This document shows positions 1-51,071 of a stretch of DNA of 64,000 nucleotides, one piece after another. Both the position numbers and the translations under genes were made by a program. A model generated the notes under the pieces. It made no database searches. It saw only the letters and a list, made by a program, of their open reading frames with translations, and had not been told where the DNA came from. Source of the stretch: Planctomycetota bacterium (GTDB taxonomy: Bacteria > Planctomycetota > UBA1135 > GCA-002686595); contig JAWKUH010000006.1 of NCBI GenBank assembly GCA_041398665.1, positions 130,596-194,595 on the forward strand, written 5' to 3'. Every line of letters begins with the position of its first letter. Positions within the stretch are counted from its first letter, which is position 1.

Positions 1-823
1 AGTCGAACGCGAAGACGCCGCGCACGACCGCCGCGGCGGGACCCTCGAAGCGCACCATCGCGTCGATCCACGCGCCGACGCCGGCCTCGCGCTTGAAGAA
101 GCGCGGGTCGACGAGGTTGCGACTGCCGGTGTAGGCGATGCGACCGTCGACCACGGCGATCTTGCGGTGGTTGCGCAGGTCCGCGCGCGCGAACACGCTG
201 CGCAGGAGCCCGGTCGGCAGCGCCGCGACGAGCCGCACGCCCGCCGCTCGAAGACGCCGCGCCGAGTCCGACGCGAGGAACGCCTCGCTCCCCGTCGAGT
301 CGGCGATGGCGCGACAGCGCACGCCGCGCCCCGCGGCTCGGACCAGCGCGTCGACGACGTCGGCGACGCGACCTCCCTCGCTCCAGATGTAGAAGCCGAG
401 GTCGCAGCTCTCGCGCGCTGCGTCGACGTCGGCGACGAGCCGGTCGAACGACGCGTCGTCGTCCGTCAGGAGCTCGACGCGGTGCGCGGCGACCGGCGGG
501 ATCCCGACCGTCACCTCGGCCTGACGCGCGAGGTCGGCCGAGGCGTCGCCGCCGACGCTCGCGCGGAACGCGAGGAGTTCCCGACACAGCCGCTCGACCT
601 CGCCGCGCCGCGCCTCGATCCGTCTCCGCCGACGCGGACCGACGCGGCGCTCGCCGAACATGAGGTAGAGCACCGCGCCGACGAACGGGAGGCTGAACGC
701 CACGGCGAGCCACGCCATCGACACCCCGACCGGCGAGCGGCGCGAGATCACGCGCAGCGACAGCGCGACCACGAGCACCCAGTGCGCGGCGAGCAGCGCG
801 GTGGAGGCGGCCGGTGCGCTCAT
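1..823 (-). CDS. cls: Cardiolipin synthase / phospholipase-D family protein; window holds the N-terminal ~270 aa, C-terminus lies before position 1
   Basis: Minus-strand translation starts MSAPAAST..., has two N-terminal TM helices then an HxKxxxxD motif (HRKIAVVDGRIAYTGSRN, reverse complement of nt ~150-200). ATGA overlap with upstream dedA stop. Confidence 0.75.
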   Translation of the reverse strand, partial: MSAPAASTALLAAHWVLVVALSLRVISRRSPVGVSMAWLAVAFSLPFVGAVLYLMFGERRVGPRRRRRIEARRGEVERLCRELLAFRASVGGDASADLARQAEVTVGIPPVAAHRVELLTDDDASFDRLVADVDAARESCDLGFYIWSEGGRVADVVDALVRAAGRGVRCRAIADSTGSEAFLASDSARRLRAAGVRLVAALPTGLLRSVFARADLRNHRKIAVVDGRIAYTGSRNLVDPRFFKREAGVGAWIDAMVRFEGPAAAVVRGVFAFD

Positions 824-1617
824 CCCGCTCGACCGCCCTCGTCGCGACCGCTCGACCCGAGCTCCTCCGCCTCGAGCTCCTCCTCGTCCTCCGCGCGTTC
901 CACCGCCGCCCGCGCGGCGCGCGCGACGAACAGCACGGCGACGAGCGCGGCGACCGCGCCGACGACGTAGAGCGCGTCCTCGAGTCCGGCGCTCTCGCGC
1001 GTCCGACCGACGACGCCGGCGGCTCGGTGACCGGCGACACCGACCCAGACCTCGACGCCGAGCGCGGGCAGGTGCGCGAGGCTCGCGACGAGGAACGGCG
1101 CGAAGCGCACGCCGGCTCCGGCCAGGGCGAAGCTCACCATCGCGACGTTGAGCGGCGCGAGTCGGATCACGGTCTGCAACCCGAGCCCGCGGTGGACGAC
1201 CGCGCGCTGCATCGCACCGAGCCTCGGCGCGTGCGCGACGAGTCGTTCGACCGGACCCGCGAGGACGCCGCGCGCGACCGCGAACTGCAGCGACACCGCC
1301 AAGAGGTGACCGATCGCGACCGCCGCCGCGCCGCGCGGGAAGCCGAGGAGCGCTCCGGCGGCGACCGTGAACACGCTGGCTGGCGCGAGCAGCGTCGTCG
1401 CGACGGTGTACGCGAGGGCGAAGACCGCGACCCCGATCGCGCCGTGCGCCGCGACCCAGGCGCGCCAGGCCTCGAGGTGCTGCACGAACTGGTCGCCGGC
1501 CCCGAACAGGAGCGCCGCGCCGACGACGAGGAGGAGCGCGACGAGCGCCGCGCGGACCCGATTGGTCCGGGGCGAACGTTCGTCGCCCGACCGAGCCGCT
1601 GCGCCGACGTCCGCCAT
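820..1617 (-). CDS. DedA / TVP38-TMEM64 family membrane protein
   Basis: 265-aa hydrophobic protein (MADVGAAARS...) with the typical DedA core LAYTVATTLLAPASVFTVAAGALLG. Real-looking part of minus ORF 820..2022. Confidence 0.7.
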   Translation of the reverse strand: MADVGAAARSGDERSPRTNRVRAALVALLLVVGAALLFGAGDQFVQHLEAWRAWVAAHGAIGVAVFALAYTVATTLLAPASVFTVAAGALLGFPRGAAAVAIGHLLAVSLQFAVARGVLAGPVERLVAHAPRLGAMQRAVVHRGLGLQTVIRLAPLNVAMVSFALAGAGVRFAPFLVASLAHLPALGVEVWVGVAGHRAAGVVGRTRESAGLEDALYVVGAVAALVAVLFVARAARAAVERAEDEEELEAEELGSSGRDEGGRAG

Positions 1618-1667: not shown

Positions 1668-4090
1668 GTGATCGAAGATCGGCGGGCGGACCGCAGAAAG
1701 GCTCGCGCCGATGCCGACAGAGGAGCGATGGGCTGGGCCCTCCTCGTCGGACTCGTGGCTGCGCTGGGTGCGGCGCTCCTCGGCGTCGCGCTGGTCCGTC
1801 GCAGTCGCCGCGAGCAGCACGGGACGCTGCACGAACGGCGCCGCGCGGAACGCACCGGTGCGGCGAGGGCGGAGCTCCAGCACCCCGTCGTCGACCTGAC
1901 GCGCTGCCTCGGGTGCGGCACGTGCGTGCGCGCGTGTCCCGAGGAGGGCGTGCTCGCGCTGCTGCACGGGCAGGCCGTCGTCGTGCGCGGCTCGGGCTGC
2001 GTCGGGACGGCGAGCTGTGCACGCGAGTGTCCGACCGGAGCGATCACGGTCACGCTCGCCGATCTCGCGACGCGGCGCGACGTGCCGGTGCTCGACGAGG
2101 GACTCGAAGCGGTGGGGCGCCCCGGTCTGTTCCTCGCGGGCGAGGTGACGGCGCACGCGCTCGTGAAGACCGCGGTCGACCACGGCACGCTGGTCGCCGC
2201 GACGGTGGCGGAGCGCGCGCAGCGCGAGGGCGCGGCGCGCGAGACCGGCGTGCTCGACCTCGCGATCGTCGGCGCGGGTCCGGGCGGACTCGCGTGCGCG
2301 CTGGAGGCGAAGCGTCTCGGGCTCGACTTCGTCCTGCTGGAGCGCGAGAGCGACCTCGGCGGCACGGTCGCGCGCTACCCGCGCCGCAAGCTCGTCGCGA
2401 CACGACCCATCGACCTCCCGCTGCACGGTCGGCTGCCCGAGCGCACCTACCTCAAGGAGGAGCTGATCGAGCTGTGGCGCGGGCTCGCCGCGGAGCACGA
2501 CCTGCCCGTCGTGTGCGACTCGACGTTCGAGTCGCTCGACCGGGACGACGCGGGCACCTACACCGTGCACGCGAGCACCGGCGAGGTGCGCGCACGCAAC
2601 GTGTGCCTCGCGATCGGGCGGCGCGGCGTGCCGAACCGGCTCGGCGTCCCGGGCGAGGACGCGCCGAACGTCGCGTACAGCCTGCTCGACGCGGACGCCT
2701 ACGAGGGCGAGCGCATCCTCGTCGTCGGCGGCGGCGACAGCGCGGTCGAGGCGGCGCTCGGTCTCACCGCGCGCGGTGCGAACGAGGTCACGCTGAGCTA
2801 CAGGCGCTCCGACTTCTTCAGGCTCGAGCCCTCGAACGAGCGCCGCATCCGCGAGGCGGCGGCGAGCGGGCGCGTCACGGTGCTGTTCGAGAGCGAGGTG
2901 CTCGAGATCGACGCGGGCGAAGTGCGCCTGCTCGCGCGTTCGGCGGACGTGGCGGGTCGCGGCACGGGCCGCACGAGCACCGACGGAGCCCCGAGCCTGG
3001 TGCCGGGCGGTCCGGGGCGCGTGCACCACGGCGCGTCGCACGAGACGCTCGAACGTCGCGTCGCCGTCTCGACCGAGGCGCGCGCCGAGCTCGTGCTGCC
3101 GTGCGACCGCGTGTTCGTGATGGTCGGCGGCACGCCGCCGATCGCACAGCTCGAGGCGGCGGGCGTCAGCTTCGACCCGACGCTGCGCCCGGCGGCGCCG
3201 GAGATCGGCGAGCAGGGCAGCGGCCTCGTCCGCGCGCTCGGCGCGGGCTTCGCCGTCGCGCTGTTCGGCCTCGCGTTCGCGCTGTGGCACCGCGACTACT
3301 ACCTCCTGCCGACGTTCGAGCGCGCGGCGTCGCCGAAGCACGACCTCCTGCGGCCCGGACTCGGACTCGGGCTGTGGCTCGGGGTCGGGTCGATCGCGCT
3401 CGTCGTCGCGAACCTCGCGTACGTGCTGCGCCGCTCGCCGCGCTCGCGCGTGCGCTTCGGGTCGCTCGCGAACTGGATGACGGTGCACGTCGCGACGGGC
3501 GTGCTCGCGCTGCTCACCGCACTCGTCCACTCCGGGATGGAGCCGCGCGACACGGTCGGGGGCCGAGCGCTGTGGGCCATGGTCGCGCTGTTCGCGACGG
3601 GAGCCGTCGGGCGCTACCTCTACGCCTACGTCCCGCGGGCGGCGAACGGGCGCGAACTCGAACTCGCCGAGATCCGCGGCCGACTCGCGCGTCTGGCGGA
3701 GGGCTTCGTCCGTGTCGACGCGCGACTCGCGGCGCTGGTGCGCGACGAGACGCTGGAGCTGGTCGAGCGGCGGCAGTGGAACACGTCGTTGCCGGCGCGC
3801 CTGCTCGCGCTCGTCGGCGCGGAGACCGGGCTGCGCCGACTTCTGCGCCGCGTGCGGACCGAGGGCGCCGCCGCCGGACTCGCGCAGGACCAGATCGACG
3901 AGGTGACGGAGCTCGCGCGCCGCGCGCACCGCTCGGCGCTCGCGACGGCGCACATCGACGACCTGCGCGGGATCATGGCGAGCTGGCGCTGGCTGCACCG
4001 CTGGGCGCGCTGCTCCTGCTCGTGCTCGTCGCGCTGCACGTGGTCTACGCGCTGGCGTACGGCGGCTACCTCGCGGGAGGCGCGCGGTGA
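1668..4090 (+). CDS. Membrane-bound fusion oxidoreductase: N-terminal TM helix, two 4Fe-4S ferredoxin-type CxxCxxCxxxCP motifs, FAD/NAD(P)-binding pyridine-nucleotide-disulfide-oxidoreductase-like domain, C-terminal 5-TM domain with conserved His. Apparent 1-nt frameshift near 4003-4008.
   Basis: Frame of ORF 1668..8069 gives CLGCGTCVRACPEEG and CVGTASCARECPTG, GAGPGG and GGGDSAVE dinucleotide-binding motifs, then TM helices (FALWHRDYY, WMTVHVATGVLALLTALVHSG). The last TM helix and stop are read in the frame of ORF 1367..4090 (LLLLVLVALHVVYALAYGGYL*). Start could alternatively be M at 1728. GTGA overlap with next gene. Confidence 0.65.
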
Positions 4091-6225
4091 ACGCCGACGA
4101 TCCGCCGCCGCCGTCCGTCGCGTGGTACCGCCGCCCGCAGTTGTGGGTCGCGGTCTGCAGCGCCGTGCTCGTCACGACGCTCGGCGTCGTCGGCAAGGAC
4201 CGCAAGTCGCCGGGTCCGCTCGCCGCGGCGCACGCGCGCGTCGCCGAGCTCGCGGGCGGTGCGAGCTGCTCGGAGTGCCACGGCGGCTGGTTCCAGGACA
4301 TGTCGAGCGCCTGTCTCGACTGTCACGAGGCGATCGAGTCGCAGATGGACGACGGGCGCGGCCTCCACGGGCGACTCGCCGAGGACCGGCGCGCGTGCGC
4401 GTCCTGCCACTCCGACCACCACGGCGCGAACTTCGCCATGGTGAACGACGTCTCGTTCCGCAAGGCGGGCGTGCCGAACGTCGACGCCTTCGACCACTCG
4501 CTCGTCGGCTTCGACATGGACGGGAAGCACGTCGAGCTGGCGTGCACGGACTGCCACGCGCACGCCTTCGACGAGGTCGTCCCGGAGGGCGTCACGCGCT
4601 TCACGGGACTCTCGCAGCGTTGCGCGGCGTGCCACGAGGACGAGCACCACGGCGCGTTCGGCCAGGACTGCGCGAGTTGCCACGTGCAGGAGAGCTTCAC
4701 CGAGCACGTCGCGACGTTCCACGACGACGTCCTCCCGCTGATCGGCGGGCACGGCGGCATGGACTGTCGCGCGTGCCACGCGGAGGGCGAGGTGCACAGC
4801 CTCGAGGTCGTCGCGGGCAACGGCTCGAAGCCGACGGCGCGCGCCTGTCTCGACTGCCACGACTCGCCGCACGGCGAGGCGTTCGTGACCCGCAACGCCC
4901 GCGACTCGCGCACCAGTCTCGAGGCGTCGTGCGTCGTCTGTCACGCCGCGGCGCACACGAGCTTCCGCGACGAGGCGCTCGAAATCACCGCGGAGCAGCA
5001 CGCGGCGTCGGGCTTCCCGCTCGCGCTGCCCCACGACGAGGTGACGTGCGACGGATGCCACGCGCCGGAGCCGGAGGACTTCGCCGCGCGCTACCCGGGT
5101 CGCGACGCCGATCGTTGCGCGGCGTGCCACGAGGACCCGCACGGCGGGCAGTTCGCGACGGGACCGTTCGCGCAAGAGGGCTGCGTCGCCTGCCACGGGC
5201 GCGAGCGCTTCGAACCGCACGGTTTCACCGCGGAACTGCACGCGCGGGCCGCCCTGCCGCTCGAGGGCGGTCACCTCGGGGCGGCGTGCGAGGACTGCCA
5301 CACCGTCGCCCACGACGGCGAACCGCGCACGTTCCGCGGCACGAGCGACACGTGCTCGGCGTGCCACGAGGACGCGCACAACGGGTTCTTCGACTCGCGC
5401 ACACAGGCGCTCGAACCGGTGGCGCACGGCGACTGCGCGCGCTGTCACGGCGCGACGGCGTTCGCGCAACTGGTGCCGGAGAGCTTCGACCACACGCGCT
5501 GGACGGGCTTCCCGGTCGACGGCGCGCACGAGGCGGAGGGCTGCGCGAGCTGTCACGCGAGCACGGCGGAGCCCGACGCCGCGGGCCGCACGTTCGGACG
5601 CGTCGCGCCCGAGCACGGCGAACTCGTCGCCATGCACGCCGGGCCCGAGGTCGGCCGCTCGTGCGCGGCCTGCCACGAGGACCCGCACGGCGGCCGCTTC
5701 GACGCGGAGGGACTGCCGGAGCGGTACGACGAGCGCGAGGGCTGCGCGCGCTGCCACACCGACGCGTCGTTCCGCGACCTCTCGCGCGGCTTCGACCACG
5801 GACTGTGGACCGGTTTCCCGCTCGACGGCGCGCACGGCGAACAGTCGTGCAGCACGTGCCACGCGCCGCTGCGCGCACCGACGACGGAGGGGCGCACGTG
5901 GGGCTTCGCGAAGGGCGCGGACTGCGCGTCGTGCCACGCCGACCCGCACGGCGGTCAGTTCCGCGAGCGCGACGCGCAGGGGACCCTCGGAGCGACGGAC
6001 TGCGCGCGCTGCCACCAGAACACGACGTCGTTCGCGAAGCTGCGCTTCCGCCACAACTGGGACTCGCGCTTCAAGCTCGACGAAACGCACGCGAAGGTGG
6101 ACTGCGCGCAGTGCCACCGCCCCGAGGTGATCTCGGGTGCGCCGACGTTCCACTACAAGCCGCTCGGAACGAATTGCACGGACTGCCACGGGGTGGGGGC
6201 GAGTTCGCTGAGGAAGGACGGGTAG
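4087..6225 (+). CDS. Periplasmic multiheme cytochrome c, about 23 CxxCH motifs, paired-CXXCH / cytochrome c7-like repeats, N-terminal signal anchor
   Basis: 712-aa ORF with roughly 23 CxxCH motifs (CSECH, CLDCH, CASCH ... CTDCH), many in CH..DxH / doubled arrangement. Hydrophobic N-terminus LWVAVCSAVLVTTLGVV without lipobox. Confidence 0.85.
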   Translation: MNADDPPPPSVAWYRRPQLWVAVCSAVLVTTLGVVGKDRKSPGPLAAAHARVAELAGGASCSECHGGWFQDMSSACLDCHEAIESQMDDGRGLHGRLAEDRRACASCHSDHHGANFAMVNDVSFRKAGVPNVDAFDHSLVGFDMDGKHVELACTDCHAHAFDEVVPEGVTRFTGLSQRCAACHEDEHHGAFGQDCASCHVQESFTEHVATFHDDVLPLIGGHGGMDCRACHAEGEVHSLEVVAGNGSKPTARACLDCHDSPHGEAFVTRNARDSRTSLEASCVVCHAAAHTSFRDEALEITAEQHAASGFPLALPHDEVTCDGCHAPEPEDFAARYPGRDADRCAACHEDPHGGQFATGPFAQEGCVACHGRERFEPHGFTAELHARAALPLEGGHLGAACEDCHTVAHDGEPRTFRGTSDTCSACHEDAHNGFFDSRTQALEPVAHGDCARCHGATAFAQLVPESFDHTRWTGFPVDGAHEAEGCASCHASTAEPDAAGRTFGRVAPEHGELVAMHAGPEVGRSCAACHEDPHGGRFDAEGLPERYDEREGCARCHTDASFRDLSRGFDHGLWTGFPLDGAHGEQSCSTCHAPLRAPTTEGRTWGFAKGADCASCHADPHGGQFRERDAQGTLGATDCARCHQNTTSFAKLRFRHNWDSRFKLDETHAKVDCAQCHRPEVISGAPTFHYKPLGTNCTDCHGVGASSLRKDG

Positions 6226-6305
6226 GTCCGAGCTCCGCAGACTTCCTCGAACTCCACTCCCGTCGCGCGGCGGAGGCGGCCGATCTGCTCCCTCCGGGGT
6301 CCTCC

Positions 6306-8069
6306 ATGCGAAGGAACGGGGCGGGGAGAGCGGCGGCGGCGTGGACCGCGGTGTGGGTGCTCGCGGGTGCGGCTTCGGCCGACGGCGCGACGGCTCCCGC
6401 CGTCGACGCGCAGGAGGAGGCGCAGGACGAGGTGCGCCTCGAGCTGCGCGTCACCGTCGTCCTCACCGAGCGGCGCGCGTCGGTCGACCGCGGCGCGAGC
6501 GACGGGCTCGCGGTCGGCGACGTCGTCTGGTTGCTTCCGCGCGAGGGCGGCCGGTTCCGCGCGTCGGTCGTCGCCGTCGAGGAGCGCTCCGCGGTGGTGG
6601 AGCTCGACGGCGCGGACGTCGCGCTGGCCGCGGGGCTGAAGGCCGAGGCGACGGTGCCGGCGTCGCGCTTCGAGAGCGAGGACGGCGCGAGCGAACCGAC
6701 GGGCGCGACCGACGCGCCGACTCCCGCCGCGAACGCTTCGAACGACGCGACCGGTGCGCGTCCAAGCCCGAACTCGATCTGGCGCGACCGCGACGAGGAG
6801 TTCGCGGACGGGATGCCGCTGCTCGCCGGCGTGGAGGCGGTGTCGCCCGGCGACCGCACGCCGTTCGTGCGCGGTCGCGTGTGGCTCTCCGTCGACGGGA
6901 CGTACACGGGACAGGACGGGCGCTCCGACCAGTTCGTGCGCGCGGGCACCGACGTCACGTACGAGAACCCGTTCGGACAGGGAGGCGTGCTCGACCTCGG
7001 CGTCGACTGGGAACGGTTGCGCTTCGACCGTCCCGAGCTCGACGACCTCGCCGACACCGAGCTCCGCTTCGAACGCCTCTCGTACGCCTTCGGCGGCACG
7101 CGCTTCGACGGCGACCGCTACCAGTTCGGGCGCTTCCTGCAACACGGCATGCCCGAGTTCGGCGTGCTCGACGGCGCGGAGTGGTCGCGGCGCACGGACG
7201 AGCACCACAGCTTCGGTGCGAGCGTCGGCTACATGCCCGAACCCGACGCGGAGTACGAGAGCGGACACGACTTCCAGCTCGCCGGCTGGTACCGCTGGAC
7301 GTCGGACGCGACGGAGCTCGCAGCGGCGAAGGTCGGCTTCCAGAAGACCTGGCACGACGGCGCGCCGGACCGCGACCTCGTCGTCCTCCAGGGCCACTAC
7401 CTCCCGCGCGACGGGTGGAGCACGCAGGCCTCGGTGTGGATCGACGCGACGGGCGGCGGCGAGATCGAGGGCTCGGGGCCGTCGGTGTCGCACGCCTACC
7501 TCTCGGCCTCGCCGTACACCGCGAGCCGCTTCGGGCTCGAACTCAACTACAGCTACCTCGACTTCCCGGAGCTCGAGCGCGACGAGTACCTGCCGACCCC
7601 GGCACCGATCGAGATCGCCGACCAGCGCGTCCACCGCCTCGGCGCGGACTGGTGGGTGCCGATGGGGGACGGCTCGCGTTTCACGGGTCGACTCGGCGGG
7701 TGGAGCGACGCGACGAACGACGGCGGCGACGTCGAGGTCGGCGTCGACGTCGTCGACATCGTGGGGCGCGGTTCGCACCTGCGGCCGCTCCTGTTCCTCG
7801 CGCGCGGCGCGGGCACGAGCGTGTGGGGCACGCGGCTCGGACTCTCGTTCGGCGGCGAGAAGGTGCGCTACGACCTCTTCTACGAGCTCGCCAACTACCG
7901 ACAGAACGGGTTCCCCGGGGGCAACGACGACTTCGTGCAGCACCGGCTGCGGACGAGCGTCTCGTGGTACCCGACGCCGCACTGGGCGCTCACCGCGCAC
8001 GTCGACGGCACGACCTACCACGAGGAACGCGGAGCGACGGCGGGGGTGTACGCGCAATGGAGTTTCTGA
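6306..8069 (+). CDS. Outer-membrane beta-barrel (porin-like) protein, putative porin component of a porin-cytochrome complex
   Basis: Signal peptide MRRNGAGRAAAAWTAVWVLAGAASA, acidic linker, then alternating hydrophobic/aromatic beta-strand pattern with many Gly/Asp/Tyr/Trp. C-terminal AQWSF (terminal Phe typical of OMPs). Lies between two cytochrome genes. Confidence 0.6.
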   Translation: MRRNGAGRAAAAWTAVWVLAGAASADGATAPAVDAQEEAQDEVRLELRVTVVLTERRASVDRGASDGLAVGDVVWLLPREGGRFRASVVAVEERSAVVELDGADVALAAGLKAEATVPASRFESEDGASEPTGATDAPTPAANASNDATGARPSPNSIWRDRDEEFADGMPLLAGVEAVSPGDRTPFVRGRVWLSVDGTYTGQDGRSDQFVRAGTDVTYENPFGQGGVLDLGVDWERLRFDRPELDDLADTELRFERLSYAFGGTRFDGDRYQFGRFLQHGMPEFGVLDGAEWSRRTDEHHSFGASVGYMPEPDAEYESGHDFQLAGWYRWTSDATELAAAKVGFQKTWHDGAPDRDLVVLQGHYLPRDGWSTQASVWIDATGGGEIEGSGPSVSHAYLSASPYTASRFGLELNYSYLDFPELERDEYLPTPAPIEIADQRVHRLGADWWVPMGDGSRFTGRLGGWSDATNDGGDVEVGVDVVDIVGRGSHLRPLLFLARGAGTSVWGTRLGLSFGGEKVRYDLFYELANYRQNGFPGGNDDFVQHRLRTSVSWYPTPHWALTAHVDGTTYHEERGATAGVYAQWSF

Positions 8070-8744: not shown

Positions 8745-10913
8745 TCAGCGCTCCGTCGGGTCCTGCGAGAGGTAGCCCAGACTCTCCAGTTCGTCGCGGA
8801 GGTCGCTCGCGAGGTTGCCGAGGTCGGCGGGTTCCCGGTCCGGCGCGACGGCTCCGTCGACGACGTCCGCGACGCGACGTGCGAGCGCGTCGGGCCAGGA
8901 CGCGTCGGCGCTCCGGATCGGACGGAGCTCGTCGGGATCGGTCGCGAGGTCGAACGCGCGCCGCGGTGAGAGCGCGACGGGGTCGAGCATCAGCTTCGTC
9001 GCGCCGTCCGTCGCCGTGAGGCGGGCGTCGCGCCTCGCGCGGGCGAACGGAGCCGCGTCGTCGCCCGACGTCCACGACGTGAAGGCCAGCGCGTCGTCGC
9101 GCTCCTCGGCGAGGTCGCGACCGCGGAAGCTCGGCGGCGCCGCGACGCCGGCCAGGCCGAGGAGCGTCGGCGCGAGGTCGATCGTCGACGTCGCGTCGCG
9201 CCGCACGCCCGGCTCGACACCGGGGCCGCTCCAGAGCAGCGGCACGCGCGTCTGCGACTCGTACGCCGGACCGATGTGGCGGAACCAGTCGTGGTCGCCG
9301 AAGGCCTCGCCGTGGTCGCTCGTGAACAGGAGGTGCGAGTTGGCGCGCCAGCCCTTCGCGTCGAAGTCGCGCAGCCAGTCGCCGAAGGCGGCGTCGAAGT
9401 CGAGCATCTGCGCGCGGTAGAGCGCGAGGATCTCGCGCATCTCGGGCCGCGCGTAGTCGCCCGACATGCGCTCGAGCAGTTCGCTCTCGCTCGGTCCGTC
9501 CGCCGGGAGTCCGACGGCGACGCGCGACGCGTCGGACGGCTCGAGCGGGTCGTGCGTGAAGTACGTCTGCACGAACAGGAACGTCGGCCGACCGTCGTGG
9601 GCGTCGAGCACGGCTTGCGCGCGCCGCAGGCCGCTCGTGCGGCTCCGCGAACCCTGGACGTACGACTCGAAGCCCTGCGCCAGCCCGAAGGCCGACGACG
9701 TGTACGCGCCGTCCGTGACCGCGACGGTGCGGTAGCCGGCGTCGCGCAGACTCTCGGCGAGCGTCTCGACGCTCGCCGGGAGCGCCTGCGTCGAACTCTC
9801 CACCCGGTGCCCGCGCGGCAGCTGACTCGCGAAGAGCGACGCGTGCGACGGCAGCGTCCACGTCGCCGCGGACCACGAGTTCGCGAACTCGATCGACCCG
9901 CGGCGGAGGCGCTCGAGGTTCGCGAGGTCGAGGTCCCGCGGCGAGTCGGCGTAGCGTCGCTGGGTCGAGAGTCCGTCCGCGCGGAAGGTGTCGGCGAGGA
10001 AGACGACGAGGTTCGGTCGGTCGGGGTCGGTCGGCGGCTCGTCCGACGGCACGGGGCCGAGCATCGGCGCGGCGAACCCCGTGAGGGCGAACGACCCGCT
10101 CGTCTCGAAGCGCAGCGTCGCGCGCTCCGCGATCGGCGGGAGGTCGACGGAAGCGAAGTGGAAGCTGCCCGTCGGCGAGTCGTCGCCGGGGTCGACGGTG
10201 CGCGACCACACCGGTCGGCCGTCGAGCAGCACGCGGAACCGGACCTCGCCCTCGGCGACGGGGAGCGTCGAGAAGCAGCCGAACGAGAGTCGTCGTTCGC
10301 CGCCGGGAGCGATCGTCCGCGCCGTGCTCGTCCCGGGCAGTACGAGCATCCCCTCGCCCGCGTAGGGGCCGACGTCGACGCGCCACACGTCGTCGTCCGG
10401 TTCGCCCACCGGGACGGGGACGAGGTGCTCGATGCGGACCGGTCGCGGCTCGCCCTCCTCGAGCCGCACGAACAGCGCGTCGTCGTTGAAGGAGAACGTG
10501 CCTCTCGGCGCCGACGCGGGGTCGAAGGCGACGTCGCCGATGGCGAGCTGTGTCAGCGGTCGACCGTCGACGACGACGACCTGCTCGATCGGGGCGACGG
10601 CGCTCGTGCTCAGGTTCGGCAGGTGCCGCGGCGCGTAGAACCCGCCCTCGAGGGGCAGCGGCATCCAGGCGTCGTCGTCGTAGGCGACCGAGATCCAGGG
10701 GCGACCGCCGACCTCGACGAGTCGCACGACCGAGCGGTCGTGGCGCGCGATCTCGAGCGGGTACTCGACCTCGCCGTCGTCGAAGTCGGTCGCGAGGTGC
10801 ACGCGACCGGCGTCCGCATCGGGGAGCGCGCGCGGCGCTCCGCCGCAGCCCGCGAGCGACAGCACGACGGCGGTCGCGGCGAGCCGCCGGGTCTGTCGAG
10901 AGGGGCGCGACAT
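8745..10913 (-). CDS. Sulfatase-family lipoprotein (arylsulfatase / alkaline-phosphatase superfamily)
   Basis: Lipobox LSLAGCGG. Sulfatase signatures TWTLPSHASLFASQLP and LLFTSDHGEAFGDHDWF. Confidence 0.75.
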   Translation of the reverse strand: MSRPSRQTRRLAATAVVLSLAGCGGAPRALPDADAGRVHLATDFDDGEVEYPLEIARHDRSVVRLVEVGGRPWISVAYDDDAWMPLPLEGGFYAPRHLPNLSTSAVAPIEQVVVVDGRPLTQLAIGDVAFDPASAPRGTFSFNDDALFVRLEEGEPRPVRIEHLVPVPVGEPDDDVWRVDVGPYAGEGMLVLPGTSTARTIAPGGERRLSFGCFSTLPVAEGEVRFRVLLDGRPVWSRTVDPGDDSPTGSFHFASVDLPPIAERATLRFETSGSFALTGFAAPMLGPVPSDEPPTDPDRPNLVVFLADTFRADGLSTQRRYADSPRDLDLANLERLRRGSIEFANSWSAATWTLPSHASLFASQLPRGHRVESSTQALPASVETLAESLRDAGYRTVAVTDGAYTSSAFGLAQGFESYVQGSRSRTSGLRRAQAVLDAHDGRPTFLFVQTYFTHDPLEPSDASRVAVGLPADGPSESELLERMSGDYARPEMREILALYRAQMLDFDAAFGDWLRDFDAKGWRANSHLLFTSDHGEAFGDHDWFRHIGPAYESQTRVPLLWSGPGVEPGVRRDATSTIDLAPTLLGLAGVAAPPSFRGRDLAEERDDALAFTSWTSGDDAAPFARARRDARLTATDGATKLMLDPVALSPRRAFDLATDPDELRPIRSADASWPDALARRVADVVDGAVAPDREPADLGNLASDLRDELESLGYLSQDPTER

Positions 10914-11115
10914 GGAACAGCGTCGGCTGCGCGCCAGGGTAGCAGCTCGCGTCCGACGATCGCGCGGCGTCACCGACTCGTCCGCGCGATCGACGTCGGC
11001 GCGCGACCGCTGCGCGGGCCGACGTGCGTCGGAGCGGCGACGGAGCGCATTCGCTCAGGACTCTCTCGGGGTTCCCTCCGCGAGCGCCGCGCCGCGTGCG
11101 ACGTAGGTTCGGGCC

Positions 11116-12540
11116 ATGCAGCTCGTCGATCGCCGCGCGTTCCTGGCCCGATCCTCCGTCCTCGTCGCGACGCTCGCCGCCGGACGGCACCTCGTCCCGC
11201 GCGTGCCGCGCGCCGACGTCGAGGCCTTCTTCCGCGCCGTCGCCGCGGGCGACCTCGCCGAGGTCCGCGCGAGGCTCGCGGCGGCACCGGAACTGCTTGC
11301 AGCCGTCGACGAGCTCGGTCGCAGCGGGTTCGCCGTCGCGCTGCTCCGCGGCCGCGTCGAGGTGGCGGCGCACCTGCGGGCCGCCGGTCACGCGCCGGAT
11401 CTGCACGAAGCGGCGCTCGCACTCGACTGGGACCTGTTCGAGCGTCTCGCGACGGCGTCCCCGGGACGAGCTGACGCGCTGCACCCGATCGGCGGGACCG
11501 CGATGCACGCGGCGGCACTCGGGGGAGCGGGTCCCGCCATCTGGCACGTCTACGCCGCGCCGGCGCACCCGAACCCCGACCGGCCGAGCGACCGCGTCCC
11601 CTCGCCGCTGCGCGCGGCGTTCGAGTACGGCGACCTCGAGGTGGCCGAGCTCACCGCCGCCGCGCTGCTCGCCAACGGCGCCGACCCGAACGCGCGCGAG
11701 CCGCGCGGGGACGGCGCGCTCCACGCCGCGGCGCGCCGCGGTTCGACCGAGCTCGTCGAGCTGCTCGTGCGCGTCGGAGCGGACACGCGAGCGCGCGACG
11801 AGGACGGACTCGACGCGAAGGAAGCCGCGGAGCGCGCGGGGGCGAGCGCCGTCGTCGCCCTCCTCGAGCGCGCCGACGAGCTGCCGCGCGACCGCTCGAC
11901 CTCGCGTCGCGCACGCACGGTCGACGGCGAGTCCTACGCGCCGCCCTCGATCGACGACCTGCCCCTCGCGGAGCGGGGCAGGGTCGTCGGGAACGCCCAC
12001 CGCGACCTCGACGCGGTCCGTTCGGCGGTCGAACGAGAGGAACGCTTCGTCCACTCCGTCGCGACGACGACGGAGGGCGCGGTCGAGGCGGCGGCGCACA
12101 TGGGGCGCCGCGACATCGCCGAGTACCTCCTCGAGCGCGGCGCGCCGTGCTCCCTCCCGACGGCTGCGTCGCTCGCTCTGCGGGACCGCGTCGACGCGCT
12201 CCTCGCCGAGGATCCGCTGCGCGTGCACGAGCACGGTGCGCACCGCTATCCGCTCCTCTGGTACGCGGCGATCGGCGACGGCGGCGTCGGACTCGCCGAG
12301 CGCCTCGTCGCGGCGGGTGCGGACGTCGAGAGCCAGCACCACCTCGGGACGACGGCGCTCCACCTGGCGGCGCGCGACGGTCTGACGGACCTCGTCGCGT
12401 TCCTCCTCGAGCACGGCGGCGACCCGACCCGCGTCGGGAGACAGTTCCAGGGTCGGCGCGAGACGCCGATCGACCTGGCGCGGGCGCGCGGGAACGAGCG
12501 CGAGCTCGAACTGCTGGAGCGCGCCGCACGCGCGCGGTGA
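11116..12540 (+). CDS. Tat-exported ankyrin-repeat protein
   Basis: Twin-arginine motif RRAFLARSSVLVATLAAG. Repeated G-x-T/A-LH-AA...G-x-x-x-V-x-LL motifs (GTAMHAAALGG, GDGALHAAARRGSTELVELLV, GTTALHLAARDGLTDLVAFLLEHGGDP). Confidence 0.65.
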   Translation: MQLVDRRAFLARSSVLVATLAAGRHLVPRVPRADVEAFFRAVAAGDLAEVRARLAAAPELLAAVDELGRSGFAVALLRGRVEVAAHLRAAGHAPDLHEAALALDWDLFERLATASPGRADALHPIGGTAMHAAALGGAGPAIWHVYAAPAHPNPDRPSDRVPSPLRAAFEYGDLEVAELTAAALLANGADPNAREPRGDGALHAAARRGSTELVELLVRVGADTRARDEDGLDAKEAAERAGASAVVALLERADELPRDRSTSRRARTVDGESYAPPSIDDLPLAERGRVVGNAHRDLDAVRSAVEREERFVHSVATTTEGAVEAAAHMGRRDIAEYLLERGAPCSLPTAASLALRDRVDALLAEDPLRVHEHGAHRYPLLWYAAIGDGGVGLAERLVAAGADVESQHHLGTTALHLAARDGLTDLVAFLLEHGGDPTRVGRQFQGRRETPIDLARARGNERELELLERAARAR

Positions 12541-12580
12541 CGTTCCGCCTCACCGAAGGGCGCGCGGCTATCCTCGGGCG

Positions 12581-13465
12581 ATGGTGAGGTACCGCTTCGA
12601 CGACTTCGCGTTCGACCCGACGACGGGCGAGATCACGCGCGGCTCGGAACACGTCGCGCGCCTCGCGCCGCAGCCCGCGCGGTTGCTCGAACTCCTCGTC
12701 GAGCGCCGCGGCGAACTCCTCGGACGCGACGAGATCCGCGCCGCCCTGTGGTCCGACGTGCAGGTCGAGTTCGATCAGAGCCTCCACTTCTGCGTGCGCC
12801 AGGCGCGACAGGCGCTCGGCGACTCGGGTCGCGAGCCGCGGTACGTGCTCACGCTGCCGCGCCGGGGCTACCGCTTCGGCGCCGAGGTGGTGATCGAGGA
12901 CGAGCGCGAGGGCGTCCGCGATCCGGCGCCGCCGTCCGCGCACGAAGTCGACGCGAGCCGGGAGACCGCGCCGCCCGCGTCGTCGCGTCGCTCCGCGCGA
13001 CGGCTCGTGCTCGTCGCCGTCCCGCTGCTCGTCGCCGTGCTCGCCGCGGCCGCGTACCTCGTCGGACGCGAGGACGACGTCGTGCTCGCGATCCTCCCGT
13101 TCGAGGTCCCGCAGGCGTTCGCCGCGACCTTCGCGCCGGGCGTCGCGGACGTACCGACGTTGCTCGTCGACCGACTCGTTCGCGAGGAGCGTCTCGCCGT
13201 CGTCGGTCCCACGACGACCGAGGGGCTCGCGGTCGGACCCGCGCCGATCGCCGCGGTCGCCGCCGCGACGGGCGCCGCGTTCGTCGTCAACGCGCGCTTC
13301 GTCCGCGACCCGGAGAGCGGCGGACTCCTCGCGGAAGTCGTGCGCTCGACCGACGGCGTCCACGTGTGGACGCAGCTGTTCGGCCGCGACGCGCGACCGG
13401 AGGAGATCGCCGATGCCGTGGCCGCGGGGCTGCGCTCCGAGCTCCTCCACGGGGATCGGCGCTGA
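12581..13465 (+). CDS. Membrane-anchored CadC/ToxR-like transcriptional activator (OmpR-type winged-helix N-terminus, single TM, periplasmic C-domain)
   Basis: N-terminal trans_reg_C-like region (ARLLELLVERRGELLGRDEIRAALW, YVLTLPRRGYRF) followed by TM helix LVLVAVPLLVAVLAAAAYLV. Confidence 0.7.
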   Translation: MVRYRFDDFAFDPTTGEITRGSEHVARLAPQPARLLELLVERRGELLGRDEIRAALWSDVQVEFDQSLHFCVRQARQALGDSGREPRYVLTLPRRGYRFGAEVVIEDEREGVRDPAPPSAHEVDASRETAPPASSRRSARRLVLVAVPLLVAVLAAAAYLVGREDDVVLAILPFEVPQAFAATFAPGVADVPTLLVDRLVREERLAVVGPTTTEGLAVGPAPIAAVAAATGAAFVVNARFVRDPESGGLLAEVVRSTDGVHVWTQLFGRDARPEEIADAVAAGLRSELLHGDRR

Positions 13466-16639: not shown

Positions 16640-18184
16640 TCAGTTGTGCAGCGACTCCGTGCGCTTCACGAGCAGGCCCTTGAGCCGGCCCATGACGTTG
16701 CTGTGGATCTGGCAGACGCGGCTCTCCGTGAGCGCCAGCATCTCGCCGATCTCGCGCATCGTGTGGCCGTACTGGTAGTACTGCTCGATGATGAAGCGCT
16801 CCTTGTGCGTGAGGGAGCGCGTGATGAACTTCATCAGGTCGCGGCGGTTGAGCTCGTGGACGGGGTCCACCGCGTCGTGGTCCTCGAGGACCTCGACCTT
16901 CTCGACCGCGCCGTCCTCGTCGTCGTCCCACTTCTCCGAGAGGGAGAACATGGCCTTCGCCTGGGACTCGTTGAGCTCCTTCGCGAGCTCGTCGTGCGTC
17001 ATGCCGAGCACTTTCGCGAGCTCGGAGTGGGTCGGCTCGCGCCCGAACTCGCCGGTGAGCTGCTGGAGCGCGCGTTCGATCCGGCTCCACTTGATGCGCA
17101 CGAGGCGCGGCACCCAGTCCTGCGAGCGCAGTTGGTCGAGGATCGAGCCGCGGATGCGGGTCGAGCAGTAGGTCTTGAACTTGATGCCGCGGTCCGGGTC
17201 GAAGCCGCGGATCGCGTCCATCAGTCCGAACTGCCCCGCGCTGACGAGGTCGTCCAGCTCGATCGACTTGGGCAGCGTCTGGAGCAGGCGCTCCGCGATG
17301 TAGCGCACGAGCGGGTAGTGGCGCTCGATCAGCTCGTTGCGCAGTCGCTCCAGCTCGGGCGACGTGATCTCGCGCTTGCGCGACGTGACCTCGGGCGAGT
17401 CCTTGGTGACGCCGAGCTCCTCGGCCATCTCGACCATGAGCCGATCGCTCTCGACCCGGTAGGCGTCCCACAGGTCGTCCGTCGAGACGTCCGCCATCTC
17501 GTCGTCCGGCGGTTCGACGTCGACGGAGTCGTCCTCCTCCTCGATCTCCTCGGCCTCCGCCTCGGAAGCCTCGAGTTCCTGGTCGACGGCCGCCTCGGCG
17601 TCCTCGTCGGTGCGCATGAGTTCGGCCGGTTCCGTGCGCTCCTCCGACCGCGACCTGGACGGCAGCGCGGCCTTGGCCTCCTTCGCCGGCTTCGCCGCGG
17701 CCTTCTTCGACGAGCCGGCCGCCTTCGTGGCGGCCCCCGACTTCGACGAACCGGTGGCGCCGGCGGCCTTCGTCGACTTCGCGGCGGCTCGGCCGCGGGC
17801 GCGCTCGGGCACGATCTCGTTGGTCTCCGTCAACTCGACCTCGGTCCTGCTCTTCGACTTCGTGTTCTTGGAAGCGGCGCTCGCCGACTTCTTCTTCGAG
17901 GACCCGGTCTTCGCCTTCGGCGCCGGCTTCGCGGACCCGGCGGCAGCCGACTTCGCAGGCTTCGACGCCTTCGAAGTCGCTTTCGCGGGTGCCTTCGCGC
18001 CGGCCTTCTTCGCGCCGGCGGAGCTCTTCGCGACCTTGCTCGCGGACTTGCTCGCCGAGCCCTTCGACGCCGCGTTCGACCTCGTGGTCGAGCCGCGCGA
18101 CGCGGTGCTCGGGGAAGCTTTGGTCGACCGCTTCTTCGAGCGATCGGCGGACGTGCTGCGGGCGGAAGAGCGCTCGGCGGCCAT
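16640..18184 (-). CDS. FliA/WhiG-family (sigma-28-like) RNA polymerase sigma factor with ~280-aa Lys/Ala/Ser-rich histone-H1-like N-terminal extension and acidic linker
   Basis: C-terminal half has FliA-type regions 2 and 4 (DLVSAGQFGLMDAIRGFDPDRGIKFKTYCSTRIRGSILDQLRSQDWVPR, TMREIGEMLALTESRVCQIHS). N-terminus is AK(S/P)-rich low complexity (AKKAGAKAPAKATSKASKPAK...) then EEIEEEDD. Confidence 0.8.
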   Translation of the reverse strand: MAAERSSARSTSADRSKKRSTKASPSTASRGSTTRSNAASKGSASKSASKVAKSSAGAKKAGAKAPAKATSKASKPAKSAAAGSAKPAPKAKTGSSKKKSASAASKNTKSKSRTEVELTETNEIVPERARGRAAAKSTKAAGATGSSKSGAATKAAGSSKKAAAKPAKEAKAALPSRSRSEERTEPAELMRTDEDAEAAVDQELEASEAEAEEIEEEDDSVDVEPPDDEMADVSTDDLWDAYRVESDRLMVEMAEELGVTKDSPEVTSRKREITSPELERLRNELIERHYPLVRYIAERLLQTLPKSIELDDLVSAGQFGLMDAIRGFDPDRGIKFKTYCSTRIRGSILDQLRSQDWVPRLVRIKWSRIERALQQLTGEFGREPTHSELAKVLGMTHDELAKELNESQAKAMFSLSEKWDDDEDGAVEKVEVLEDHDAVDPVHELNRRDLMKFITRSLTHKERFIIEQYYQYGHTMREIGEMLALTESRVCQIHSNVMGRLKGLLVKRTESLHN

Positions 18185-50445: not shown

Positions 50446-51071
50446 GGTGCGATCCTAGCAAGCCTGCGTCCGCGGCGTCCGCTCCGCGCGGCCTCGTCCT
50501 CGGTCACGAAGTTGGCGATCAGCGGCGTGCCCCACACGTCGCACCCGAGCTCGCGCAACCAGGTCCGCGTGCGGTCGTTGCAGTGGTGGAGCACCGAGTA
50601 GGAGTTCGCGTCGTCGGGGACGAACTCGAGTCGGTAGAGCGTGCTGTAGAGGCGCTCGTCGCGCGCCTCCTCGAAGCGCGCGACGAGGCGCGACTCGAGG
50701 GCGGCCGCCGCACCGCGCTCGACGTCGAGCCCGATCACCTTCTCGGCCCAGAACGCGCGGGCGATCGCGTCCGCTTCGGGCGGCCCGTTCCAGGGCGCGC
50801 GACCGAGCGCCGCGCGCGTCGGCCAGAACAGCACGGCGGGCAGGCGCCACCAGTCCGTGTCGTCGAGCGCGAACCAGCGCCACTCGCCCCACGCCCACAG
50901 GTCGTGACCCGTGCCGTCCGAGCGCGGCAGCACGAGCGCGGAATGGCGACCCTGGTCGACGACGAAGACGCGAACGGGGTCGACGACGTCCCGCGGGGGG
51001 ACGACGACGGCGCGACAGCTCGCGAGCGTGAGCGCGGCGGCGAGCGCGAGGGCCCGCGCGTCGCGCTTCAC
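50442..51071 (-). CDS. Lipoprotein, DUF2459-like (conserved hypothetical)
   Basis: GTG start. Lipobox LTLASC. Conserved-looking HCNDRTRTWLRELGCDVWG. 4-nt overlap with the upstream His-rich lipoprotein gene. Confidence 0.5.
   Translation of the reverse strand: MKRDARALALAAALTLASCRAVVVPPRDVVDPVRVFVVDQGRHSALVLPRSDGTGHDLWAWGEWRWFALDDTDWWRLPAVLFWPTRAALGRAPWNGPPEADAIARAFWAEKVIGLDVERGAAAALESRLVARFEEARDERLYSTLYRLEFVPDDANSYSVLHHCNDRTRTWLRELGCDVWGTPLIANFVTEDEAARSGRRGRRLARIAP

Follow-up and report, generated by a model that had tools for sequence, protein, structure and literature searches.

A membrane-anchored iron–sulfur flavoprotein fused to a putative di-haem cytochrome b domain at the head of a planctomycete multihaem cytochrome operon

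To our knowledge, in every Gram-negative route of extracellular electron transfer characterised so far, a quinol dehydrogenase is the first step. The locus described here raises the question of whether such a route could instead start at NAD(P)H, as the first gene of its multihaem cytochrome operon encodes a membrane anchor, a ferredoxin domain, an FAD/NAD(P)-binding domain and a five-helix membrane domain in a single polypeptide. It lies in a stretch of 64,000 nucleotides from a Planctomycetota bacterium (assembly GCA_041398665.1, contig JAWKUH010000006.1, positions 130,596 to 194,595), referred to below as the window and used for all numbering. The features considered are collected in Table 1.

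Table 1. Positions of the fusion gene, its domains and the downstream operon in the window (aa, residues of the fusion protein)
Feature	aa	Positions	Strand	Description	Evidence
Membrane Fe-S flavocytochrome-like fusion gene	1-787	1728..4090	+	787 aa once one G is restored at 4003-4005	Translations, homologues
N-terminal TM anchor	2-23	1731..1796	+	Followed by RRSRRE	Hydropathy, AF2, kept in split homologues
Ferredoxin-type dicluster domain	53-110	1884..2057	+		Pfam Fer4_10/Fer4_21/Fer4_7
Flavoprotein domain	175-480	2250..3167	+	FAD/NAD(P)-binding, two Rossmann folds	Pfam, PDB relatives
C-terminal 5-TM domain	497-787	3216..4090	+	Putative di-haem cytochrome b	AF2, hydropathy, profile
TM1	499-520				AF2, hydropathy
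TM2	546-568				AF2, hydropathy
TM3	581-602				AF2, hydropathy
TM3 motif		3468..3533	+	W-x3-H-x13-H (W583-H587-H601)	Invariant across all alignments
TM4	612-634			TGAVGRY	AF2, hydropathy
Helical bundle of membrane domain	635-755			Cytoplasmic
TM5	756-778				AF2, hydropathy
TM5 motif		3993..4060	+	W-x3-H-x13-H (W753-H757-H771), frameshift inside helix	Invariant
GGG run		4003..4005	+	-1 frameshift; one base below in-frame GGGG	Expected from homologues (..HRW/GAL..)
Cytochrome c, 712 aa		4087..6225	+	23 CxxCH, N-terminal hydrophobic anchor or signal; putative periplasm-spanning wire
Secreted protein, 588 aa		6303..8069	+	Signal-like N-terminus, C-terminal ...GVYAQWSF
Cytochrome c, 225 aa		8057..8734	+	7 haem motifs, lipobox (LVAC)	Kept in L001, L002
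Lipoprotein cytochrome c, 960 aa		13619..16501	+	11 CxxCH	tblastx synteny

The fusion gene likely starts at the ATG at 1728 (MGWALL..., as in homologues) rather than at the GTG at 1668, and its TGA stop codon (4088-4090) shares bases with the GTG (4087) that opens the next gene. Translation places the last helix and the stop codon in the -1 frame relative to frame 3 of the forward strand, in agreement with a reading made earlier from the sequence alone (the sequence-only reading), which had suspected an indel near 4003-4008. Comparison with relatives narrows the position: homologues read ...WRWLHRWGA(L/V)LL..., and one G is therefore missing from the GGG run at 4003-4005. The frameshift is either an assembly or sequencing error or a recent inactivating mutation. 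Programmed frameshifting at this site was considered and rejected, as there is no slippery heptamer and the relatives are in frame.

All of the motifs that the sequence-only reading had quoted for the ferredoxin, Rossmann and C-terminal regions are present in frame 3 of the forward strand. The N-terminal helix reaches a Kyte-Doolittle peak of 2.69, the 17 residues that follow it carry seven K/R, and AF2 models a helix over residues 2-44 (pLDDT 93-95); the RRSRRE directly after the membrane segment indicates that the subsequent domains are cytoplasmic. Pfam recognises a Fer4 dicluster domain at residues 53-107. Its first motif, CxxCxxCxxxCP (CLGCGTCVRACP, nt 1905-1940, forward strand), is followed by a second, CxxTxxCxxxCP (CVGTASCARECP, nt 1998-2033, forward strand), from which the second Cys is absent, that position being T in the window and variable among homologues. 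Across 53 homologues, the only invariant Cys residues of the domain are C60, C63, C66, C70, C91, C97 and C101, so that the pattern is a 7-Cys one and not the canonical 2x[4Fe-4S]. The proposal of a 2x[4Fe-4S] ferredoxin thus stands as regards the dicluster domain and falls as regards its second motif, which is one Cys short and brings the count to seven, not eight. By likeness to the established 7Fe-ferredoxin motif, the domain would hold one [4Fe-4S] and one [3Fe-4S]-type cluster; it was modelled by AF2 at low confidence (pLDDT 43-51).

The flavoprotein domain is matched by Pyr_redox_3 at residues 180-400 (Pfam, E 1.7e-37) and contains GAGPGG (nt 2271-2288), GGGDSAVE (nt 2727-2750) and an SYRR..F.R motif, together with a disordered, lineage-specific insert at residues 412-448 (nt 2961-3071, pLDDT <50). 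Its nearest solved relatives are the TrxR-type FNR 3ab1 (9e-17) and YpdA 7a7b (1.5e-15), with 6gar, 3lzw and 5ygq also among the fold matches. No CxxC was found in residues 175-480, where the only conserved Cys residues are C190 (at least 90% of homologues) and C293 (invariant). An assignment as thioredoxin reductase was accordingly rejected (no CxxC; TIGR01292 score of 59 against a cut-off of 343), as was one as YpdA/Bdr disulfide reductase, for which TIGR04018 gave 126 bits against a cut-off of 339.9 (NCBIfam) and the 7a7b alignment puts the Gly of GAGPGG where Cys14 of GGGPCG stands. The two-Rossmann fold, the lack of CxxC and the ferredoxin fused in cis point instead to a TrxR-type ferredoxin-NAD(P)+ reductase.

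The five-TM domain was modelled by AF2 with a pLDDT of ~81. In the topology check, TM3 and TM5 run parallel, both in-to-out, with H587 (codon 3486-3488) on the cytoplasmic side and H601 (codon 3528-3530) on the periplasmic side; the corresponding residues of TM5 are H757 (codon 3996-3998) and H771 (codon 4037-4039). Both His pairs are invariant in 53 full-length fused homologues and remain so in relatives whose identity drops to 24-27%; with stand-alone relatives in the alignment, the W-x3-H-x13-H pairs of TM3 and TM5 are kept from 75% down to 24% identity. In TM4, G625, G628, R629 and Y630 are invariant (stand-alone consensus SGxxGRYIY, against TGAVG(RY) here), and conservation is also strong in the periplasmic loop between TM1 and TM2 (YY..LP..ER..H.KH..LRPG). 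In a hydropathy and positive-inside check, TM0, TM2 and TM4 are each followed by a K/R-rich loop, which likewise indicates that the Fe-S and FAD domains are cytoplasmic. The C-terminal His motifs quoted in the sequence-only reading (WMTVHVATGVLALLTALVHSG, ALHVVYALAYGG and FALWH) were found in frame 3 of the forward strand, and its count of four conserved membrane His holds, although the set itself does not: H521 of FALWH, conserved in <90% of homologues, had been included by mistake, and H757 (WRWLH, at the frameshift) had been missed.

No Pfam model exceeded its threshold for the five-TM domain, and the sub-threshold matches fall in two-haem cytochrome families only (Ferric_reduct, DUF4405 and Ni_hydr_CYTB). 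The domain profile has a single sequence match in the PDB, local and marginal, in which TM5 aligns to helix B of cytochrome b6 (E 0.003) with both haem-ligand His in register; no solved relative of the whole domain was found there. Together with the invariant His pairs, these matches support the earlier proposal of bis-haem b ligation, and we infer that the domain ligates two b-type haems. A non-redox domain, in which the conserved His coordinate a metal or form part of a transport route, is very improbable. The refuting case named in the sequence-only reading, a match to a non-redox transporter family with unconserved His, does not hold, as the His are conserved.

The fusion is not an artefact of the frameshift or of assembly, a concern that had been raised from the sequence, as the closest 120 homologues are all fused (51-75% identity, 94-100% coverage). 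In more distant relatives, the two halves are adjacent genes. Full-length homologues of ~740 aa number more than 100 in Planctomycetota, and the same architecture occurs in thousands of database proteins, a recurrence far beyond chance. Among 70 loci drawn from Planctomycetota, Kiritimatiellota, Verrucomicrobiota, Elusimicrobiota and Myxococcota, the flavoprotein is fused in 23, encoded immediately upstream in 31 and found elsewhere in the cluster in 11; split flavoproteins stop exactly at the fusion junction and retain the TM anchor. A profile search with the five-TM domain returned 4414 clusters at 50% identity, including many stand-alone proteins of 290-300 aa, and for ten stand-alone representatives (Planctomycetes, KSB1/Deferribacteres) the cluster members are named "hypothetical protein" only. 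Searching plasmids with the membrane domain by tblastn gave no match. The domain order is indeed unnamed, as had been suspected, since no Pfam or NCBIfam model spans the fusion, and in the literature searched we found no description of a flavoprotein-membrane fusion of this kind or of a path from NAD(P)H to multihaem cytochromes that does without quinones.

Both Engelhardtia mirabilis and a relative with 54% identity have exactly this gene order downstream. The 23-haem cytochrome matches the Pfam Cytochrome_C7, Cytochrom_c3_2 and MtrC/MtrF domains and, weakly, DmsE/MtrA-like proteins; its gene lies 3' of the fusion in loci L001-L004 and in most of L005-L084, and a cytochrome of 17-26 haems follows the membrane domain at nearly every locus. 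The 588-aa protein has no family match in Pfam, NCBIfam or the PDB, contains 13 amphipathic β 9-mers (6.1±2.0 in shuffles) and has a conserved counterpart of 574-582 aa in the same position in L001 and L002; by these weak heuristics, it is probably an outer-membrane β-barrel, the porin of the conduit. The 960-aa cytochrome, which shows a weak ExtM-like match, is a homologue of the cytochrome of 922-955 aa whose gene, in relatives, comes immediately after that of the 7-haem protein; here the two are parted by an insertion of ~4.9 kb.

By motifs and context, the C-terminal domain matches the conserved inner-membrane protein (IMP) of the putative PCC3 and PCC4 porin-cytochrome c clusters. These IMPs are stand-alone proteins of ~300 aa from Proteobacteria, with untested function (He et al. 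2017, PMC5566968), and have five TM helices, W-x3-H-x13-H on TM3 and TM5 and (S/T)GxxG on TM4 (PMC5566968); the five helices, both His motifs and TGAVG for SGxxG on TM4 are all found here. The PCC3 and PCC4 IMPs show no significant similarity to each other (PMC5566968). Their genes sit beside those for a periplasmic cytochrome of 21-27 haems, a porin and multihaem cytochromes outside the cell (PMC5566968), to which the 23-, 7- and 11-haem cytochromes nearby correspond, the porin of the present locus being a candidate only. He et al. suggested that the IMP contains two b haems and moves electrons across the inner membrane, in a model that links it to quinones and runs inward, for Fe(II) oxidation (PMC5566968). 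In contrast to the stand-alone proteins, the domain here forms the C-terminal 291 residues of a 787-aa fusion, and association with an NAD(P)H-type Fe-S flavoprotein is absent from that description (PMC5566968).

Because the flavoprotein and the probable two-haem domain are fused and stand first in a multihaem operon, electrons probably exit the cell without quinones. We propose, with moderate confidence, a quinone-independent export of electrons through the inner membrane, from NAD(P)H via FAD, Fe-S clusters and two b haems to a multihaem wire. The thioredoxin-reductase-like FAD domain would oxidise NAD(P)H, presumably with a preference for NADPH, at the cytoplasmic face, and electrons would then pass through the fused 7-Cys ferredoxin domain, by way of the [4Fe-4S] and next the [3Fe-4S]-type cluster, while the N-terminal helix holds that domain at the membrane surface. 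Direct transfer from the Fe-S clusters to the membrane domain would follow, and the two b haems would carry electrons across, one on the cytoplasmic side with H587 and H757 as predicted ligands and one on the periplasmic side with H601 and H771, each haem bridging TM3 and TM5. From there, electrons may enter a PCC3-like porin-cytochrome conduit, being handed to the translationally coupled 23-haem cytochrome c and onward, via the probable outer-membrane β-barrel, to the surface 7- and 11-haem lipoprotein cytochromes and finally to an acceptor outside the cell, for instance Fe(III)/Mn(IV) minerals or humics. Electrons leaving NAD(P)H (-320 mV) for the outside run downhill, with help from the membrane potential. 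Such export conserves no energy and dissipates the membrane potential, which counts against this proposal. Also against it, the cytoplasmic bundle of ~120 residues that the AF2 models show under the membrane domain could set the Fe-S clusters apart from the inner haem.

The quinone pool may instead lie between the two halves, with the membrane domain acting as a quinol:cytochrome c (or cytochrome c:quinone) oxidoreductase and the flavoprotein as a tethered NAD(P)H:quinone reductase. This is how the stand-alone protein has been modelled, and that model, being quinone-linked and inward, counts against export (He et al. 2017, PMC5566968). The conserved periplasmic TM1-TM2 loop could accommodate a quinone. 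Among solved two-haem b proteins of this kind, the majority bind quinones, NarI, FdnI and CybB included. However, a ferredoxin domain between the flavin and the membrane part is needless for NAD(P)H:quinone reduction, the halves are fused or adjacent at the exact domain junction in 54 of the 70 loci, which argues for direct, protein-internal transfer, and the membrane domain matched no quinone-binding family in Pfam; we regard a quinone-linked arrangement as unlikely. Flow could also run inward: the conduit would collect electrons from a donor outside the cell, be it Fe(II), a cathode or a syntrophic partner, and the flavoprotein would use them to reduce NAD(P)+ in the cytoplasm for biosynthesis. 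PCC3 came to light in Fe(II) oxidisers and has been considered a candidate iron oxidase. Multihaem conduits can in principle work in either direction, and TrxR-type FNRs are reversible enzymes. Uptake is nonetheless improbable, as movement from the outside to the cytoplasmic side runs against the membrane potential, reduction of NAD(P)+ (-320 mV) by Fe(II)-type donors is strongly uphill with no proton-coupling element evident, and the flavoprotein-linked variant occurs in PVC, Myxococcota and Elusimicrobiota rather than in the classical iron oxidisers.

Whichever way electrons flow in the family, the missing G could be a true mutation that cuts TM5 short ahead of its second His, making this copy a pseudogene, a reading to which we give a minor but real share of belief. 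The frameshift is present in the sequence as given, frame 3 stays open as far as 8069, so that a truncated product would read on into the cytochrome gene in the wrong frame, and the ~4.9-kb insertion (a sulfatase, an ankyrin protein and a regulator) also breaks the cluster relative to Engelhardtia. Yet a single-base indel in a G homopolymer of a sequence with 72% G+C is a typical sequencing error, the 28 codons 3' of it retain the conserved helix, H771 and a stop at the homologous position that overlaps the next start, and every neighbouring gene of the cluster is intact. A GC-frame scan saw no mid-gene frame change elsewhere; the plot flagged ordinary gene boundaries only, at a resolution too coarse for the 90-nt tail. 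Were the frameshift genuine, H771 would be lost from this copy.

Returning to export from NAD(P)H, the fusion and its split relatives name a partner, an NAD(P)H-type Fe-S flavoprotein, for the hypothetical PCC3 inner-membrane protein. More tentatively, and with rather less than even confidence, the fusion may be the first recognised quinone-independent inner-membrane entry to extracellular electron transfer and a bacterial functional analogue of NADPH oxidase, built from a TrxR-like flavoprotein, a 7Fe ferredoxin and a new five-TM di-haem b fold. The same tentative reading, taken as a whole, would make the PCC3/PCC4 IMPs pure haem wires and not quinone enzymes, and the module one that is kept, fused or split, in Planctomycetota, Verrucomicrobiota/Kiritimatiellota, Elusimicrobiota and Myxococcota. 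If true, PVC, Myxococcota and Elusimicrobiota could dump cytoplasmic reducing power on minerals or humics without the quinone pool, the scoring of metagenomes for metal and humic reduction would be affected, and a compact, single-gene part would be available for engineering connections between cells and electrodes.

Several known systems share part of this design. Among membrane cytochromes, the matches to helix B of cytochrome b6/cytochrome b (E ~0.003) and to prokaryotic cytochrome b561 (CybB; PF01292, Ni_hydr_CYTB, 16.9 bits against a cut-off of 30.1) are local or marginal, and helix count, connectivity and the cytoplasmic insert differ here. The TrxR-type FNRs (Chlorobaculum tepidum 3ab1, Bacillus YumC 3lzw) and YpdA/Bdr resemble the flavoprotein domain in their two Rossmann motifs and lack of a redox-active CxxC, and the natural partner of the FNRs, ferredoxin, is here fused in cis; those enzymes are soluble homodimers of ~330 aa, whereas the present protein is a membrane-anchored ferredoxin/haem fusion. 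The Ndh2-DMK-EetAB-PplA system of Listeria combines an NADH-oxidising flavoprotein, a special quinone and a flavinylated lipoprotein in a Gram-positive envelope. It likewise uses a dedicated NADH-oxidising flavoprotein to route cytoplasmic reducing power outward for redox balance, but is not known to contain haems, an Fe-S domain or a transmembrane haem pair. CymA, ImcH, CbcL and CbcBA are the quinol-oxidising inner-membrane starts of multihaem pathways to the cell surface; they occupy the same starting position, and CbcL also joins a di-haem b domain to c haems, yet none is known to carry a flavoprotein that binds NAD(P)H or an Fe-S domain on the cytoplasmic side. The NOX/FRE enzymes share the overall course from NADPH through flavin and two stacked bis-His haems on TM3 and TM5, with 13-residue His spacing, to an outside acceptor. 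PF01794 scores 16.0 bits here, below its cut-off of 28 (E 0.013), a few homologues carry weak precomputed matches, and the C-terminal dehydrogenase module PF08022 + PF08030 is absent, Pyr_redox_3/Pyr_redox_2 lying N-terminal instead. The parts used here are unrelated to those of NOX/FRE and stand in reverse order. In contrast to NOX/FRE, the dehydrogenase is thus N-terminal and TrxR-like rather than FNR-type, an Fe-S domain is added, five TM helices with a cytoplasmic insert of ~120 aa replace six, and the predicted acceptor is a multihaem cytochrome rather than O2 or Fe(III) directly.

The fusion of ferredoxin, flavoprotein and membrane domains recognized in the sequence-only reading is confirmed, with corrections to its Fe–S pattern and its His assignment, and represents a conserved protein family that has neither a name nor a characterization. 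Translation of + strand frame 3 from 1668/1728 yields the protein described, and the predicted start is the ATG at 1728 because homologues open with MGW/MSW.... Near 4000, the conserved reading shifts to the −1 frame and runs to a TGA at 4088–4090. At this site homologues read ...SWRWLHRWGA(L/V)LL... and the window reads cgc-tgg-g|gc-gcg, so the GGG run at 4003–4005 is one G short, where an indel had been placed; with the missing base put back, the product is 787 aa. The copy in the window may be inactivated by this frameshift. An open frame of 2133 codons in + strand frame 3, spanning four real genes read in other frames, is an artefact of the 72% G+C, and ORF length is a weak guide in the window.

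A database search with the fusion returned 5872 matches. The best 120 of these share 51–75% identity at 94–100% query coverage, are nearly all about 735–800 aa long and, where the source is named, come almost exclusively from Planctomycetota (e.g. Engelhardtia mirabilis at 75%); source names of homologues include "NAD(P)-binding domain-containing protein", "Ferredoxin--NADP reductase" and "thioredoxin reductase". With clustering at 50% identity, a profile built on the C-terminal domain alone retrieved 4414 clusters, 2486 of them at E ≤ 1e-10; they are mostly stand-alone proteins of 290–300 aa, with fusions of 730–850 aa in the minority. Scanning genomes with the stand-alone members as queries identified 80 loci, spread over Planctomycetota, Kiritimatiellales/Pontiella, Verrucomicrobiota, Elusimicrobiota, Myxococcota and Acidobacteriota, 70 of them with a detectable domain copy. 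The Fe–S flavoprotein shares an ORF with the membrane domain in 23 of these 70 and is a separate gene directly upstream in 31; elsewhere it lies downstream on the same strand (4), is divergent on the opposite strand (7) or is not found (5, some at contig ends). The fused loci and the nearly uniform full length of the best 120 of the 5872 matches show the fusion to be real and widespread, not an artefact. The separate flavoproteins retain both the N-terminal TM helix and a 7-Cys ferredoxin; their C-terminal end falls exactly at the fusion junction, a Rosetta-stone pattern which argues that the two halves act as a single unit. In one database protein, P0184 (838 aa), a single ORF runs from the flavoprotein end through the membrane domain into a multihaem cytochrome c region; either the downstream cytochrome has been fused as well, or a frameshift is being read through, as is possible in the window.

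Pfam places a ferredoxin dicluster domain at aa 53–107, in which only seven Cys are invariant across 53 full-length homologues (C60, C63, C66, C70, C91, C97 and C101), the second motif being CxxXxxCxxxCP. Seven Cys form the classical pattern for [4Fe–4S]+[3Fe–4S] proteins, and the earlier assignment of two [4Fe–4S] clusters is corrected to this pattern. For the flavoprotein domain, Pyr_redox_3 is matched at aa 180–400 (Pfam, E 1.7e-37), the top NCBIfam model is YpdA (126 bits, far under the cut-off of 339.9), and the closest solved proteins are the Chlorobaculum tepidum thioredoxin-reductase-type ferredoxin–NADP+ reductase (3ab1, 9e-17), YpdA/Bdr (7a7b) and related FNRs. The domain lacks a CxxC and has Gly at the YpdA cysteine position, which excludes a disulfide reductase and identifies it, as judged from sequence, as an FNR-like NAD(P)H flavoprotein. 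The stretch SYRR..F.R resembles the 2'-phosphate site (HRR) found in thioredoxin reductases and may point to NADPH. Within the NAD(P) domain, a disordered insert rich in Gly, Arg and Thr (pLDDT <50) is confined, in variable form, to the closest relatives (P0001, P0006 and P0010) and is missing in E. mirabilis and most family members.

AlphaFold2 predictions for the full-length protein (pLDDT 80.5) and for its C-terminal 294 aa (pLDDT 80.9) contain five TM helices, with a cytoplasmic helical bundle of ~120 residues between TM4 and TM5. Hydropathy and K/R counts assign the ferredoxin and flavin domains to the cytoplasmic side and an inside-to-outside direction to both TM3 and TM5. Four membrane His are invariant in the 53 homologues, two per helix (H587 and H601 in TM3, H757 and H771 in TM5) and each time within a W-x3-H-x13-H motif; all four persist at 24–27% identity, stand-alone proteins included. 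The interpretation of four His ligating two haems is supported, with a different membership: H521 (FALWH) is not conserved, and H757, at the frameshift, had been overlooked. No Pfam model covers the domain; its only matches, all sub-threshold, are to three families of two-haem cytochromes (Ni_hydr_CYTB, Ferric_reduct and DUF4405). The only match of its profile to PDB sequences is cytochrome b6 (local, E about 0.003), in which TM5 aligns to helix B and both of the haem-ligand His line up. Together, the invariant pairs, family signals and helix B alignment make a transmembrane stack of two bis-His b haems a well-supported, if unproven, reading. The periplasmic TM1–TM2 loop (YY.LP..ER..H.KH..LRPG.G) ranks with the best-conserved parts of the whole domain family and is a candidate cytochrome docking site or quinone site.

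The TGA stop of the fusion and the GTG start of the 23-haem cytochrome gene overlap as GTGA at 4087–4090, which suggests translational coupling; E. mirabilis has an identical 4-nt overlap (L001, 12226/12229). In nearly all of the 80 loci, the membrane domain is followed by a cytochrome with 17–26 haems. The 588-aa protein has the C-terminus ...YAQWSF and is enriched in amphipathic β-segments (13 vs 6.1 ± 2.0 in shuffles), and is probably an outer-membrane barrel. E. mirabilis and one relative at 54% identity have matching gene order without the insertion of about 4.9 kb (8745–13465), whose Trans_reg_C regulator might control the 11-haem cytochrome. Sub-threshold similarities, of the 23-haem cytochrome to the DmsE/MtrA decahaem family (TIGR03508, 1.6e-17, repeated four-fold) and of the 11-haem cytochrome to Geobacter ExtM (1.5e-19), hint at a remote relationship to conduit cytochromes already known. 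Upstream, relatives carry a DUF2959 gene in place of the VTT/DedA-like protein. The small lipoprotein may bind metal.

Features of the window discussed in the text
Feature	Position	Strand	Remarks
VTT/DedA-like membrane protein	820-1616	-	Divergent, upstream of fusion; VTT_dom 30.4 bits, just under cut-off
2133-codon open frame	1668-8069	+	Frame 3
Fusion	1728-4090	+
NAD(P)-domain insert	2961-3071		aa 412-448
TM1-TM2 loop	3288-3365		aa 521-546
23-haem cytochrome c	4087-6225	+	712 aa, 23 CxxCH; next gene after fusion
Putative barrel	6303-8069	+	588 aa, secreted, no family match; after 23-haem cytochrome
7-haem lipoprotein cytochrome			After 588-aa protein
Sulfatase	8745-10973	-	Within insertion
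Ankyrin-repeat protein	11116-12540	+	Within insertion
Trans_reg_C regulator	12581-13465	+	Within insertion; membrane-anchored, winged-helix; directly upstream of 11-haem cytochrome
11-haem lipoprotein cytochrome	13619-16501		960 aa; beyond insertion, which separates it from 7-haem gene
Sigma-70 family factor	16640-18184	-	Regions 2, 3 and 4; ~270-aa Lys/Ala/Ser-rich low-complexity N-terminal extension; directly after 11-haem gene
Small lipoprotein	51068-51556	-	His/Asp-rich tract (HADDHADHDHGAEDHADHDHAHDHAD); no Pfam match

The most economical reading is an electron path from NAD(P)H to the outside. Electrons would pass from NAD(P)H through FAD to the [4Fe–4S] and [3Fe–4S] clusters of the fusion, on to the inner and then the outer haem b and the 23-haem cytochrome, and from there through the barrel and surface cytochromes to an extracellular acceptor. 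Outward flow would be thermodynamically downhill, with the membrane potential assisting; electron transfer in the opposite direction, from an outside donor to NAD(P)+, would run uphill in potential and against the field, with no coupling device visible. As the outward route would conserve no energy, its role is likely redox balancing or extracellular reduction of Fe(III)/Mn(IV)/humics, not that of a coupling site. The main rival is that quinones remain in the electron path. It agrees with the quinone-linked model published for the inner-membrane protein of the porin–cytochrome clusters PCC3/PCC4 (He et al. 2017, PMC5566968). Being joined to an NAD(P)H flavoprotein changes the function proposed for that class of protein.

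The conserved inner-membrane protein of the putative PCC3/PCC4 clusters measures about 300 aa and spans the membrane with five TM helices, of which TM3 and TM5 each carry W-x3-H-x13-H and TM4 carries SGxxG; it was proposed to bind two b haems (PMC5566968). Papers from 2023 and 2025 still regard PCC3 and this protein as untested. The C-terminal domain of the fusion shares all of these motifs and the context, with TGAVG on TM4 for SGxxG and a 23-haem partner cytochrome beside the 21–27 haems of PCC3, and on these grounds belongs to a class that earlier literature has noted. The link with the flavoprotein appears undescribed: the literature searched contains no account of the membrane domain linked or fused to an NAD(P)H-type Fe–S flavoprotein, which is weak evidence, most subscription journals lying outside the search. 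By Pfam scores, the fusion falls outside the NOX/FRE ferric-reductase superfamily, and with a dehydrogenase of another class and order it resembles those enzymes in its way of working only.
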